The position numbers and the translations under genes were made by a program. 64,000 nt of DNA from Eledone cirrhosa (taxonomy: Eukaryota), in assembly GCA_964016885.1 (NCBI GenBank), contig OZ024743.1, forward strand, positions 104,718,001-104,782,000, written 5' to 3'. Within the stretch, counting starts at the first letter, position 1, and each line of letters opens with the position of its first letter. Shown piece by piece: positions 9,499 to 53,000 of this stretch. The notes under the pieces were generated by a model that saw only the letters and a program-made list of their open reading frames with translations, did no database searches and was not told the origin of the DNA.

Positions 9499-9644
9499 GT
9501 GTGTGTATGTGTATATACATATATATATATATAGAGAGAGATTCCTGATGATTTCTAAAGAATGAAACAGTTCTAGTCCTGTAGAATATCATCTATATAT
9601 ATATATATATATGTATATGTATGTATATACACATACACACATAC

Positions 9645-45149: not shown

Positions 45150-46050
45150 ATACATATGTGCATTTTTGTATGTATGTTCTTCTGGTTTTATAATTTCACA
45201 AATGTTTGCCAATAGAGAGAGAGTCGGTTTCTAGCATAGTTACAAGACTCTCTCATTGGAATTTACGCAACATCATCTAGGTAGATATGTATGCATGCAT
45301 GCATGTGTAGGTATGGATGTTATTGTATGTGTGGATGTGTATGTTTTGAGTTATATGTGTGCATGTGTATATGCTTTGTATCTGTACATGTGTATATGCA
45401 GTTATTAGATGCACATTTTTTGGAATGTTTTACATATTTTTACTGTTCGATTAATGGATAGTACTTGTAATTTCCTAACTAGTTCTGTCTTTCTGTTCCC
45501 GTGAAGCCCAGCTTCTCAAGAGTTGTATTGAGGCAGTTACTAACATATCCCAGTGCCCCAATAATCACAGGCATAGATCTGAAGGTGTAATCAGGGTGGA
45601 GTATCTGCAGATTTCTCATCAGTTCTGCATAAATATTCGCCTTTTCGTTAATCTTTGACATTATATCGGCATCTGCTGGGCAGCTAACTTCCACTACTGT
45701 GCATGCCTTCTTTTCCCTGTCCTATATCACTATGTCTGGTCTATTATGCCTGCATTTTATTGGGGTTTTTACCGGAACATTCCACCAGTACTCTTTCATA
45801 TTATGTATATGTATGTCTTCCACCATTGCTGTAGCTTTTAATACGTTTATTATCGGGGCTATCTTTTCTACGGATTGCATTGTACAGTGTTTTGGCCACT
45901 ACATCATGCCTCATAGGTAGATAGTACCGCGATGACATCTTTGGATAGCTGCTTATGACATGGGTGACATCTTCGATGTTAATTCTGCAGAGTCTGCACT
46001 TGTTTTTACTTCTAGGTGTTTTGCCTGCATCCCTATCTCTTTTGTGAATC
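45150..46050 (-). pseudogene. R4/Dong-clade (RLE) non-LTR retrotransposon 3' fragment
   Basis: CRLCRINIEDVTHVIS..RHD, WNVPVKT..HNRPDIVI, EVSCP, EK..Y, PVIIGALG; then 3' UTR and (TACA)n. Confidence 0.85.
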
Positions 46051-46059
46051 AGGTATTTT

Positions 46060-46385
46060 ATGTATGTGTATGTATGTACGTACGTATGTATGTATGTTCT
46101 GGTTTTATAATTTTATAAATTTTTACCAATAGAGCAGGAGAGTCGCTTTCTAACATAGTCTCAAGACTCTTTCATTGGAATTTAGACATCAACTAAGTAG
46201 ACATGTTGTATGCCTGCATACGTGCGTATCTGTGCAGATGTGCGTGTTATTGTATGTGTAGATGTTTCGAGTTATATGTGTCCATGTGCATATGTTTTGT
46301 ATCTGTACATGTGTACATACAGTTATTACATGCAGAATTTTTGGAATGTTTTACATATTTTTACTGTTCCATTAATGGATTGTAT
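46060..46385 (-). mobile_element. Second copy of the R4/Dong-associated 3' segment
   Basis: Diverged direct repeat of 45165-45460. Confidence 0.7.
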
Positions 46386-46811
46386 TTGTATGTATGTATG
46401 TATGTATAGGGAGCTTATAGATAGGACAACACACGCTGTCTTTTCGTGGGGTAAGTTTTTGATTAATATTTGTATTCTGAAGCATCAAAATACAACAAAT
46501 ATTTACTCACTGGACTCGGGAATATCATGACAGAAGTTTGTGGATGTTACACAAATATTTTCACATACTTTGCCAGAGCAAACCTTATTTATATTTTACA
46601 TTTTACATTTACTTACATCTCAATATAACATGGCTAAAATTCAAATTTTTCAAAGAGAAGAAAACGGACAAATGAACTAGATATATCTCACTTCCCCCCG
46701 CCACCACAATAACGTCTACATTCTCTACCACCACATTTACATTTACACATGTCATTACCCTTGTGGACTAAAGTCACTGACCTGTTGCCAAACTCTCTAC
46801 TCTGTGTTGAA

Positions 46812-46900
<89 letters not shown>

Positions 46901-46904
<4 letters not shown>

Positions 46905-47862
46905 GAATAATCGAGTATCGGAAAATCAGCTCACGAGTTTACGATAAACAAATCCGACATGAGTGGCAGAGGGCTCAATAATTCAGATAAATCAGAGCTA
47001 TAACTATCGTTAAAATACCAACACACAAAGATTATGCCTAAAATCACCCATGCAGCCGAAAAATAACGACCAGGAAGATTCGGGTCACTCAGATAAAATA
47101 TCAATAAATCAATAATTCATATGAATGTAAAAACTTACCCGGACCCACTAGAAAGATAGTAAATCTAGCTTCTTGGGTTTCTGCAATTCCTTAATCCGCC
47201 CCCTATCAGCCCACATAAAAATATATAAGACTTCTAGAGAGCGGATGGACCGGAACACTTTATCAACGGGTCATGTCCAAACGAATAAAGAAGCTAACTT
47301 TAGCTGTGACGCACATGGAGTCCAGCAAGGGAGATAACCTCTATATCCGCGAAAGATTTTCGGTAATGTGGGAAACCACATATCGAATAAGAGTGCTCGA
47401 TAGACATGTTAAAATAAACAGGAGCTATTCATCATTCAATAGAATCGTCAAAAAATGAACAATAAAATTAACTAGTCAATAGCTAAGTCTAGAGCTAAAT
47501 ATAATAGAATAATCGAGTATCGGAAAATCAGCTCACGAGTTTACGATAAACAAATCCGACATGAGTGGCAGAGGGCTCAATAATTCAGATAAATCAGAGC
47601 TATAACTATCGTTAAAATACCAACACACAAAGATTATGTCTAAAATCACCCATGCAGCCGAAAAATAACGACCAGGAAGATTCGGGTCACTCAGATAAAA
47701 TATCAATAAATCAATAATTCATATGAATGTAAAAACTTACCCGGACCCACTAGAAAGATGGTAAATCTAGCTTCTTGGGTTTCTGCAATTCCTTAATCCG
47801 CCCCCTATCAGCCCACATAAAAATATATAAGACTTATAGAGAGCGGATGGACCGGAACACTT
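46901..47862 (-). mobile_element. Retrozyme/Penelope-like unit A: 602 bp monomer x1.6 between (TA)n tracts
   Basis: 46901-47260 is repeated almost exactly at 47503-47862; non-coding; carries an HHR. Confidence 0.7.
47137..47271 (-). ncRNA. Type I hammerhead ribozyme, U3-A8 core variant with extended stem II
   Basis: Minus strand ACCCG-TTGATAA-AGTGTTCC...GGAATTGCA-GAAA-CCCA...TGGG-TC-CGGGT. Confidence 0.65.
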
Positions 47863-48125
47863 ATATATATATATATAAATGAAAATAGAGAAATTAATGT
47901 GAGCAAGAAGCCAACAGTATTTCATAATATATAAGTGACTATAACGTCAAGATGGAAAATATTTAACGTAAGATATGGGAAAATAATTCAAACTCAATTA
48001 AAAAAAAGTCAAGACAGAAATTTTATCCACAGATTTTGTGAAATCCAGGGAAAAAACAATAGAGTCTTAACTCAGAATAAAATTAAGGTTAAATACACAT
48101 CCTTCAATTTGGAAAAACTACAAAT

Positions 48126-48206
48126 GCTCTATATAGTCTTAAAAAGACTGTTTCGCGAAACTTTTCAGTGGTATTAGTCACGGTTGGAATCGCTCATCAG
48201 TAGAGC
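48126..48206 (-). ncRNA. Type I hammerhead ribozyme, unit B copy 1
   Basis: Minus strand GCTCTA-CTGATGA-GCGA...TCGC-GAAA-CAGTCTT ttt AAGACTA-TA-TAGAGC. Confidence 0.85.
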
Positions 48207-48754
48207 TCAAAACACGATAACCAAAATTCACTGCTAAAATATGCCAGAAAGGGAATTTAAAAGCAGACTAGTGCACCTCGTGTGGATTTATGAAAATAAA
48301 CACACATGGAGAACATAGCTAGTGACGTCAGAATGAGACGAATGTCTGTTTACAAGAAACAGCAGTCAAAACATTCCGAAAAACACTCAACAAAAATGTA
48401 TGGAGTTCAGCATATAGCAATATTATCGCGGTTAAAAAAAAAAAAGACCAGGATTAGTCACAAATAATTTTAAGCACTCTAGGAAAAATTCCGAGTATAA
48501 ATATAAATGAAAATAGAGAAATTAATGTGAGCAAGAAGCCAACAGTATTTCATAATATTTAAGTGACTATAACGTCAAGATGGAAAATATTTGACGTAAG
48601 ATATGGGAAAATAATTCAAACTCAATTAAAATAAAGTCAAGACAGAAATTTTATCCACAGATTTTGTGAAATCCAGGGAAAAAACTAATAGAGTCTTAAC
48701 TCAGAATAAAATTAAGGTTAAATATTCATCCTTCAATTTGGAAAAACTACAAAT

Positions 48755-48835
48755 GCTCTATATAGTCTTAAAAAGACTGTTTCACGAAACTTTTCAGTGG
48801 GATTAATCACGGTTGGAGTCGTTCATCAGTAGAGC
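48755..48835 (-). ncRNA. Type I hammerhead ribozyme, unit B copy 2
   Basis: Same fold, with stem II ACGA...TCGT. Confidence 0.85.
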
Positions 48836-49314
48836 TCAAAACACGATAACCAAAATTCACTGCTAAAATATGCCAGAAAGGGAATTTAAAAGCAGACTAG
48901 TGCACCTCTTGTGGAATTATGAAAATAAACACACATGGAGAACATAGCTAGTGACGTCAGAATGAGACGAATGTCTGTTTAGAAGAAACAGCAGTCAAAA
49001 CATTCCGAAAAAAACTCAACAAAAAAATATATATATATATATGTATGTATGTGTGTGTATATACATCACTCAGTCAAACGACCAGATTTCAACCCTAACA
49101 TCTACAACAACACCGGCACTAATGTTTACAGCAACAACAGCTTCAGAATGAAATGAAATGAACAACATTTACAACAACAGCGGCATCAAACGATAAAACA
49201 ACAACAACACATACACAACACAACAACAACACCAACTGCCACCACCACCATCCACCGCCGCCATCACCATCACAAGCGATCGGGCCTTAAGAAAACAACA
49301 ACTTTAATAATAAT

Positions 49315-50036: not shown

Positions 50037-53000
50037 GGCGGTGGATTGGCAGTATCGGTATATAGTCGGACGCCATGCTTTCCAGCATAGTTACGTTCCT
50101 TTACGGTTTGAGTTCAAATCCCGCCGAGGTTCACTTTGCCTTTCATCCTTACGGGGCCGATAAAATAAAGTACCAGTATTGTACTGGGTAATTGCTGGCC
50201 TTGTGCCAAAAGTAGAAACAATTATTATTATTATTATTGTTACTTTTTTTCTTCCCCAATTAAATGATGTTCCAAAACAATATAAAAGAGATAATTGGCA
50301 ATAAGGGTTCTGGAACAAAAGATATAATTGGCAATAAGGGCAGGGGCCCCAGGTTATCACAGCCTGGGCCCGCTCGTCATCGTGCCACTGTAATAGAGCC
50401 AAACAAGGTATTTAGTCTTGGCTGCTGGAACGTACGGACGCTGCTTGACAGGAATTCCTTGTTGCAAAAGAGCTTCGACGTTACGATCTTGACATCGTAG
50501 CTTTATCTGAGACAAAGTTAGCTGGAGATGGTCATCTTACAGAATTTTGTGGAGAATATACATTCTTCTGGAAAGGAAGAGATGAAGGAACCAGAAGTGA
50601 GGCTGGGGTAGCATTTGCTGTTAAGACTGTTTATGTGGATAAATTAGAAGAATTTCCAGTAGGGATTAGTGAGCGCCTTACGTCCATGAGAATTCCGCTG
50701 GACAAAGGAAGATATGCGACCCTGGTGAGTGTGTATGTTCCAACTATGAATTCTGTCAATGAAGTAAAAGTGTCCTTTTACCATGCCTTGGATGGTGTTT
50801 TAAGAAATATCCCCCAGGCAGACAAAGTCATTGTGCTTGGTGACTTTAATGCTAGAGTGGGTAGGGATTTTAACACATGGAATGTAATCGGAAGGCATGG
50901 GGTGGGAAAGTGTAACAACAATGGTATGCTCCTACTGCAGATGTGTGAGGAGCTGGATCTGTGTGTTACCCACACCATGTTCCAACAAAAGAACAAATTT
51001 AAGACTATATGGATGCATCTTGCATCTAAGGAATGACATCTTTTGGACTATGTCAGGATGCGTGGTAGACGGGATGTGCAGTGTGCTCGTGCTCTTCATG
51101 GAGCTGAGTGCTGGACGGACCACCGCCTGGTACGCGCAAAAGTGAAACTAATCACTAAACGGGCTCCTGGTGTTACCCTGCCCAGAAGATTGAATGCTGC
51201 TCGTCTTAGGGATAAAAATGTGAAGAAGACATTGCGAGAAGAGATGCAGGTTGTAGATCTTGGTGAGGATTGGCCGACCCTTAAAAAGTCGGTTTATGAT
51301 GTAGGCAGGCGTGTTCTGGGATTGGTGCAGAGAAAACATCAAGACTAGTTTAATGAGAATGATGAACACATAGAAGACTTGTTGGCTGATAAGAGGCGTG
51401 CTCTGTCACGCTACTTGACGGCAAAACCACAGGAGAAGAATATGTTGCATAAGGAACTCAAGGATGTGAAATCACGTGTTAGGCGGAGTCTTTCTCAGAT
51501 GAAGGATCAGTGGTGGAGTGAGAAGGCTGGTGAGATACAAACTGCGTCAGATTCCAATAACACAAAGCTGTTGTACAGTCTCTTGCGTGAAGTTTACGGA
51601 CCGTCTTCTCTGGTGACACCGTTTCGCAGCAAGGATGGCAAAGAACTTCTTCGTGACTCACAAGGAATTCTACGAAGGTGGCGAGAGCACTTTTGAATCA
51701 GCCGTCTGTCGTCAATGAAGATTTCCTCAATCTCATTCCAGAAAGTCCTGTGAAAGTAGCTCTCGCAGAACCTCCGACGCTTGTGGAGGTTGCAGTGGCT
51801 ATCTCGAAGCTGAACAGTGGAAGATCTCCAGGTATCGATGGCATACATGCAGAGCTCCTACAATATGGTGGTGAGAGACTTCTTCAACATCTTCACTCTT
51901 TGTTTGGCAGGATATGGGCTAATAAATCCGTACCTGAGGACTGGAGAGATGCAGTAATGGTGGCCTTGTACAAGGGAAAGGGTAACAGGAATGATTGTGG
52001 GAACTATAGAGGTATATCATTGCTTTCTGTCGCAGGGAAAGTTTTATGTAGGGTGCTTCTGGACCGTCTGCTGACATACATTGCAGATTGTGTTCTTCCT
52101 GAAAGTCAATCTGATTTTCGTGCTGGACGCGGCACTACTGATTTGATCTTCTCAACTAGAGGGCTCCAGGAGAAGTGCATGGAACAAGGTTTGGATCTGT
52201 ATCAGGTTTTTGTCGATCTGACAAAAGCTTTCGATACTGTTAACAGAAACGCATTATGGAAGGTTCTCCAGAAACTTGGATGCGCTGATAAGTTCCTTGC
52301 TTTAGTTAGGTTTTTCCATGACGACATGAAGGCTTGGGTTAATGTCGGAGGTAACATGTCGGAGCCTATCTCAGTAAAAAATGGAGTGAAACAGGGGGAT
52401 ATTCCAGCACCGACCCTGTTTGCCATATACTTTGCAATGGTTTTCAGTAGTGCATTCAGGAATTGCGAACATGGTATTTACATCCGATATCGAACCTCAG
52501 GCAGCATATTTAACATCAGGCGCTTTGCTGCAAAAACAAAAGTATTTACATCAATCATAAGAGATCTCTTGTATGCAGATGATTGCGATCTTGTATCGCA
52601 CACAGAGAGTGATATGCAGCACATTTTGAATGCATTTTCTGATGCTTGCACTGCCCTAGGATTGACAGTCAGTCTCAAGAAAACCGTCGTCATGTACCAA
52701 CCTGCCCCTGGTAAGCAGTACAGTGAACCAAATATCTATGTGTATGGTAAACGACTTGGAGTGGTTGATCAGTTTGTCTACCTGGGAAGCACTGTCAATC
52801 GATAAAGCAACCTTGATAATGAAATCTCACTCAGGATTAGGAAAGCAAGTGATGCTTTTAGAAAGCTAGAAAGGCGACTCTGGCGTCGGCGAGACATATG
52901 CAAAAAGACAAAGGTAAAGGTGTACAAGGCATGTGTGCTCTCTTCTCTTCTTTATGCCTGCAAGACCTGGGTCACATATCGACACCACCTTAAGCAAATG

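Follow-up and report, generated by a model that had tools for sequence, protein, structure and literature searches.

Coral, mussel and axolotl are known to have tandem repeats that carry type I hammerhead ribozymes and give rise to RNA circles (Cervera and de la Pena 2020, PMC7229834). A recent preprint presents such retrozymes as non-autonomous derivatives of Penelope-like elements (PLEs), with lengths of 51-972 bp and, in ray-finned fishes, a mean of 650 bp, and reports that one of nine Xenopus dimers was cleaved in vitro (Li, Clavereau and Pollet 2026, 10.64898/2026.07.22.740005). For the tandems of PLEs themselves, circular templates were proposed in 2014 (PMC4209133), and an anole PLE was found to start reverse transcription internally at AT-rich targets and to use uncleaved RNA in vitro (PMC11167929). 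In a partial literature search we found no paper on cephalopod retrozymes; the supplements of Craig 2021, Cervera 2020 and Li 2026 may list the families described below, and file S1 of Craig 2021 holds Octopus PLE consensus sequences (PMC8557442).

We analysed a stretch of 64,000 nucleotides of the Eledone cirrhosa contig OZ024743.1 (positions 104,718,001 to 104,782,000 of the forward strand, henceforth the window), in which two tandem elements, A and B, lie next to each other in (TA)n. An earlier reading made from the letters alone (the sequence-only reading) had described the locus as two unrelated, non-coding tandem units within (TA)n, and we obtained the same layout on re-deriving the coordinates. 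The features, in window positions, are as follows.

46826-46901, no strand: (TA)n tract, the target of element A, next to its fixed 3′ end
46902-47503, minus strand: full monomer of unit A, 602 nt, with its 3′ end fixed at 46902
47081-47087, minus strand: repeat of the 5′ strand of helix I, 60 nt past the A cut, which on transcription is predicted to block the ribozyme
47137-47271, minus strand: type I hammerhead of A, with a variant core (U3-A8) and with helices II and III that are both long
47504-47862, minus strand: upstream partial copy of unit A, 5′-truncated, 359 nt
47863-47877, no strand: (TA)n spacer of 15 nt separating insertions A and B
47878-48505, minus strand: full monomer of unit B, 628 nt, with its 3′ end fixed at 47878
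48126-48206, minus strand: type I hammerhead of B, downstream copy, with predicted cleavage at 48132/48131, G10.1-C11.1 and C15.2
48132-48760, minus strand: predicted cut-to-cut monomer of B, 629 nt, a putative circle precursor
48506-49024, minus strand: upstream partial copy of unit B, 5′-truncated, 519 nt, with a complete hammerhead inside
48755-48835, minus strand: type I hammerhead of B, upstream copy, with predicted cleavage at 48761/48760
49027-49043, no strand: (TA)n next to element B, on the side of its variable 5′ end

Unit A (602 nt) is present 1.60 times and unit B (628/629 nt) 1.83 times. The two copies of A differ at 3 of 345 compared sites and those of B at 14 of 503, with one extra base in the partial B copy; the 5′ side of the full B monomer is a templated TA-like junction motif. 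The units are unrelated (local alignment score of 24, shuffled mean of 24.5) and non-coding, the longest ATG ORFs being 61 aa in A and 53 aa in B, both antisense. We found no LTR pair bracketing an internal region at the locus and no PLE protein match in the window. Three runs of a single sample (contigs of unrecorded kind) covered both units and did not span the locus. Elsewhere in the window, two older repeat copies, about 920 nt apart and 85-89% alike, lie to the left of the (TA)n tract (45180-45469 and 46097-46390); a reverse transcriptase fragment on the plus strand at 51900-52700 (RVT_1, E 7.8e-29; no PLE protein match) is probably a LINE; and two more hammerhead-like motifs are found outside units A and B, at 9545 (plus strand) and 34837 (minus strand).

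A and B resemble metazoan non-LTR retrozymes in being non-coding, low in GC and arranged head to tail with one type I hammerhead per unit, in occurring as monomers, dimers and multimers, in sharing their genome with PLEs, and in size: both fall within the 51-972 bp already printed (Li et al. 2026), meaning that, contrary to the sequence-only reading, the monomers are not unusually long. They differ from these retrozymes in being documented with strict (TA)n targeting, a fixed internal start and 5′ truncation, and in their long helices II and III, to which A adds a U3-A8 core; in the PLE loci sampled, we also found no terminal repeat to which they could be linked by sequence. Furthermore, a conserved downstream strand is predicted to block the ribozyme of A, whereas most animal retrozyme circles were predicted to leave the ribozyme free. 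Given that the retrozyme class is already in print, A and B are new families within a known class, and we treat them as supporting material and not as a new system.

The likeness extends to PLEs. With Neptune-type PLEs and non-autonomous PLEs such as MRC1, A and B share a fixed 3′ end, 5′ truncation, partial tandems, a microsatellite target and a hammerhead upstream of the internal start of reverse transcription (PMC8557442, PMC11167929); by contrast, they have no ORF, and for neither A nor B did we find a second fixed start or an inverted arm from such a site. Their hammerheads have counterparts among the PLE variants, namely the U3-A8 core, for which covariation is described in Schistosoma Cercyon PLEs, and the long helix III of fungal and protist PLEs (PMC4209133). 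Compared with those variants, A combines U3-A8 with a long helix III and with a helix II domain of 80 nt that has a mismatch at its base, all within a non-coding tandem unit, and its hammerhead is not a minimal motif that depends on a dimer. Type-SGC hammerheads (i.e., site, GAAA, core; Eckert et al. 2023, PMC10085705) also have the hammerhead core strands, but A and B follow the ordinary type I order of core, GAAA and site and are not SGC.

Both families are dispersed in the 3.0-Gb genome. Exact motif matches numbered 2,119 for A-type and 2,436 for B-type, against 0 for reversed-pattern controls; tandem copies and sister subfamilies are counted in these totals, whereas mutated copies escape them. 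A single-copy local duplication, which the sequence-only reading had named as the finding that would speak against it, was thus not borne out, and the dispersed copies refute local duplication as the origin of this locus. To characterise the insertion ends, we kept only insertions that included the fixed end and dropped duplicate and cross-assigned loci before counting. (TA)n was present at the fixed end of 36/36 A1 and 40/41 B1 insertions and at the variable end of 26/36 and 27/41, respectively (background of 5-12%), the former in line with the proposed (TA)n priming. In both families the 3′ end is fixed at (TA)n, 5′ truncation varies in extent and tandems are partial, and this end pattern is the footprint of PLEs. 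Twelve matches started away from the fixed end; they were deletions, cross-subfamily pieces or copies interrupted by SINEs. In B, 5′ ends did not clearly accumulate at the cleavage sites, and the 5′ ends of A showed a weak, post hoc excess near 226-266 (9/36 ends).

Among insertions picked by their 3′-terminal 90 nt, the majority were shorter than one unit; 15/27 B and 18/25 A insertions extended past the cleavage site, and 4/27 B and 7/25 A insertions were longer than one unit, which argues that the template was not a cut linear monomer copied once. Two complete ribozymes were present in 5/41 B1 (window included) and 1/36 A1 insertions, long copies being overrepresented in this sample. Two consecutive complete hammerheads, by which Li et al. 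define ‘active’ elements, are carried by B at this locus and by A at other loci only. Arrays reach at least 12 units, and the period-2 and period-3 higher-order blocks of some long B and A arrays (L186-L188, L192) look like later local duplication, i.e., satellite-like growth in place. Such block duplication is what could be said for regarding A and B as local tandem duplications or satellites with chance ribozyme-like motifs, an explanation that we consider scarcely credible against thousands of dispersed copies, one fixed end, one junction motif and conserved hammerhead helices (see below). Separately, the last 56 nt of B (window 47878-47933) end at an internal TATATA and were found alone between TA runs at four loci (L067, L054, L107 and L135); autonomous PLE ends have a comparable tail of 35-45 nt.

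The genome also contains candidates for an enzyme donor. At first look we counted about 10,600 GIY-YIG candidates, and intact ORFs combining a reverse transcriptase with a C-terminal GIY-YIG reached 938 and 1,024 aa. Their CX4CxxC linker fits the Neptune type as described in PMC8557442, and intact Neptune-like ORFs lie at C1:145868000-145877500 and C1:83811000-83820500. The 3′ repeats of these PLEs end at (TA)n and have minimal hammerheads about 125-185 nt before it, and in one autonomous family the hammerhead has a U3-A8 core, as in A. Profiles of A and B had no match in the repeats of 32 sampled PLE loci (of the ~10,600 candidates) except for stacked neighbours, so the case for a PLE partner comes from the footprint and not from sequence.

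These data also bear on whether A and B could be the pLTRs of ordinary autonomous PLEs, seen as 5′-truncated copies without an ORF. Hammerheads do sit in pLTRs, and Xenopus retrozymes derive from pLTRs; in addition, our fetched loci have flanks of 1.5 kb and were selected by their likeness to A and B. Within that set, however, a PLE protein match lay nearby in 9/166 loci (some overlapping), never contiguous with the 5′ end of the element, and in 0/166 was an A or B element contiguous with a PLE ORF. What follows one unit is another unit, for up to at least 12 units, with no UTR or ORF, and, as noted, the profiles did not match the pLTRs of the 32 PLE loci. That the units are always pLTRs of ordinary Penelope elements, which the sequence-only reading had named as a finding that would refute it, is not supported by these loci, and a pLTR origin seems to us very improbable.

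The minus strand of unit B carries two complete, canonical type I hammerheads with a spacing of 629 nt (CUGAUGA cores at 48829 and 48200). The predicted cuts lie exactly where the sequence-only reading had placed them (48761/48760 and 48132/48131), the downstream one 255 nt before the 3′ end of the element, and the two complete hammerheads support, as a prediction, the release of an exact 629-nt RNA. In 10 sequences from two subfamilies about 80% alike, 95% of the cells in the hammerhead helices were paired, and 3/15 pairs, including the first helix I pair, were changed on both sides. In subfamily B2 two U residues face each other at the base of helix II, and both B hammerheads in the window have C15.2, a helix III mismatch where the family has U. 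These two hammerheads differ from each other by a compensatory change at 10.1-11.1 that was absent from every other locus scanned, and this unique difference fits a dimer template or a template switch better than a single monomer.

Folding of B gave a mixed picture. With added upstream sequence, nested folding disfavoured the active fold, and the favoured alternative, in both B1 and B2, paired the 5′ flank with loop II. On these models, the pairing may stabilise the hammerhead as a pseudoknot or may compete with its active fold. A decoy strand lies 71-72 nt downstream of the B cut, and folding does not favour it. Some 125 nt upstream of its core, B also has an TGACGTCA palindrome (window 48323-48330 and 48952-48959), which is retained in 15/20 B1 and 13/15 B2 copies. 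The palindrome is presumably CRE-like, and it is a possible internal promoter element of B.

The hammerhead of A was less apparent. Strict hammerhead descriptors had no match in unit A and an Rfam search of the region returned no ribozyme, but the resulting view of A as a ribozyme-less unit was overturned by an alignment of further A-type subfamilies, which we gathered with a pattern on the conserved GAAAC...GUC half. The alignment revealed a U3-A8 core strand, conserved and accompanied by a matching helix I, 85 nt upstream of that half. In the window, the core is at 47266-47260, G12 at 47181 and the predicted cleavage at 47142/47141, i.e., 240 nt before the 3′ end of the element, and the variant consists of U3-A8 plus an A-A mismatch at the base of helix II. 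Across 31 sequences, 96% of cells were paired, two helix II pairs were changed on both sides, and the covariation score exceeded those of all 500 shuffles, although relatedness inflates such scores. The 3′ strands of the alignment are fixed by the search pattern; in the helix I 5′ strand, variation is nearly confined to pairing-compatible letters. The three-way junction of the window A region forms unaided in folding (z -3.15), and when the 2.1 kb was shuffled 200 times with its dinucleotides approximately kept, a relaxed descriptor had 0 matches. We rejected further candidate cores in A: neither CUGAUAG nor CUGAGUGA is conserved, and in A2 a CUGAUGA sits in a plain hairpin, its counterpart in A1 being AUGAUGA. 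No non-circularly permuted hammerheads were found in the units. Our literature search, which included PMC7151607, found no activity data for U3-A8 cores.

The upstream A copy ends inside the core and is without the helix I 5′ strand and U3-U4-G5, meaning that the locus has one complete A ribozyme and not two, and release of a 602-nt monomer from it is not expected. Consequently, of the sequence-only reading, the 602-nt circle is not supported for this locus, while its proposal of one type I hammerhead per monomer on the minus strand holds for both copies of B and, with a core variant, for the full copy of A, but not for the partial one.

Past the A cut, the helix I 5′ strand is repeated at 41-60 nt, exactly in 44/68 A-type copies and as a close variant in most of the remainder. 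For an RNA ending 30 nt past the cut, helix I has a predicted pairing of 0.86, vs. 0.08 for one ending at 70 nt, and in a modelled circular fold of A the decoy would outcompete the helix I strand. Two further observations concern this region. A stretch just past the A cut (window 47132-47140, minus strand) resembles a 5′ splice site in A1, its sixth position differing in other subfamilies. A SINE-like element of ~170-190 nt occupies nearly the same spot in A-type helix II at four loci (L076, L079, L087 and L172), where differing target duplications indicate apparently independent insertions.

We also compared variants between tandem copies. All four subfamilies have one conserved, templated TA-like motif at the tandem junction, and in 4/11 A2 tandems the 3′ end carries letters that the template has past the junction, the trace expected of internal priming. 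Subfamily variants of the terminal copy recurred upstream in 51/56 cases in B1 (16.5 expected), 7/7 in A1 (2.0 expected), 25/37 in A2 (16.1 expected; all 12 misses in L083) and 2/3 in B2, and a first-base variant of A1 agreed in 16/16 tandems, 8 per allele. Discordant sites between tandem copies were symmetric, and tandem variants are not inherited by position, with same vs. opposite polarity of 4 v 11 in B1, 7 v 8 in A2 and 0 v 0 in both A1 and B2. Shared variants without position-specific inheritance point to a monomer bottleneck in most generations. The template would thus be a monomer and is likely circular, as a circle is a simple explanation of the bottleneck; in these data, a cut linear monomer copied with an end-to-end jump would be indistinguishable from it. 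The picture is not uniform: of 48 comparisons, only 13 gave the tandem partner as the one closest relative, 10 were ties and 25 had a closer copy elsewhere, and two arrays (L083 and L017) contained dissimilar units.

Variant sharing between tandem copies thus supports the earlier suggestion that a monomer template was copied over more than its own length. The 1.6-1.8-mer pattern, which had been read as the mark of copying a circle, is consistent with the footprint, but is not proof by itself since partial tandems are general among PLEs and the anole PLE uses uncleaved RNA. Indeed, the same elements and PLE enzyme could have worked from an uncleaved, linear read-through multimer, or from a cut monomer with end-to-end jumps, in which case the hammerhead would merely trim 5′ ends or rarely cut and a circle would be unnecessary. 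We regard this as unlikely, though as the most serious of the alternatives. It draws on the observation that ribozyme mutants leave anole PLE insertion unchanged in vitro (PMC11167929), on partial tandems in PLE clades that PMC8557442 reports without canonical hammerheads, on the heterogeneous arrays L083 and L017, and on the difference between the two B hammerheads in the window. However, pure linear inheritance predicts that new variants appear in one tandem position, and we found them in both (51/56 and 16/16 above) and not inherited by position; in addition, the hammerhead helices are conserved with compensatory changes.

Considering all this, we think it probable that the locus consists of two separate insertions from unrelated, high-copy, non-coding families with predicted type I hammerheads, which are likely to be Penelope-type, non-autonomous retrozymes with a probably circular monomer template. 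The retrozyme identity and minus-strand polarity given by the sequence-only reading are supported. For transcription, cleavage, circles and the PLE enzyme of A and B, we infer the following course. A donor with two complete hammerheads would be transcribed on the minus strand, and its ribozymes would excise one unit (for B here, a predicted 629 nt), which a host ligase may then circularise, as the literature on other animals suggests. A Neptune-like PLE protein, postulated from the observed end pattern, would nick (TA)n and prime reverse transcription internally, at a UA-rich site whose position is fixed 240-255 nt downstream of the cut. Copying would pass the cut site, run for a variable length and sometimes more than once round, and mostly stop at TA microhomology, a step suggested by the observed length pattern.

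The pairing of A with B is two independent insertions sharing one target. The sequence-only reading had treated the two units as one system; yet the A-B junction of this locus has no second copy among the fetched loci, and A and B mostly occur apart or, where they meet elsewhere, differ in junction and orientation. Stacking follows from the insertion itself, which leaves (TA)n on both sides as a target for the next element. Further hammerhead-bearing repeats were seen in shared (TA)n tracts at ten loci (L007, L014, L017, L039, L056, L058, L061, L063, L071 and L054), some of them with a palindromic, TA-rich helix III. In our model of the locus, read-through from the B cut (48132/48131) to the A cut (47142/47141) could yield a chimeric RNA of 990 nt. 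A doubtful extension of this would be that A can cut only for a brief co-transcriptional interval before its decoy locks it, that B is held by the flank-loop II helix, and that the 990-nt chimera is mobilised. If true, the conserved downstream copy of the helix I strand in A would protect the circle, both retrozymes would carry an on/off switch of their own, the two-family RNA could circularise, and (TA)n stacks would be a source of composite elements.

The carrier and template of animal retrozymes have so far been inferred, and the two families described here provide a population footprint. That footprint, i.e., fixed, internal (TA)n priming, copying through the cut and variants shared between tandem copies, fits a monomer bottleneck. 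The intact Neptune-like PLE ORFs of the same genome name a testable partner, while the B locus offers a ready, natural dimer and family A a natural U3-A8 hammerhead with a predicted self-block.
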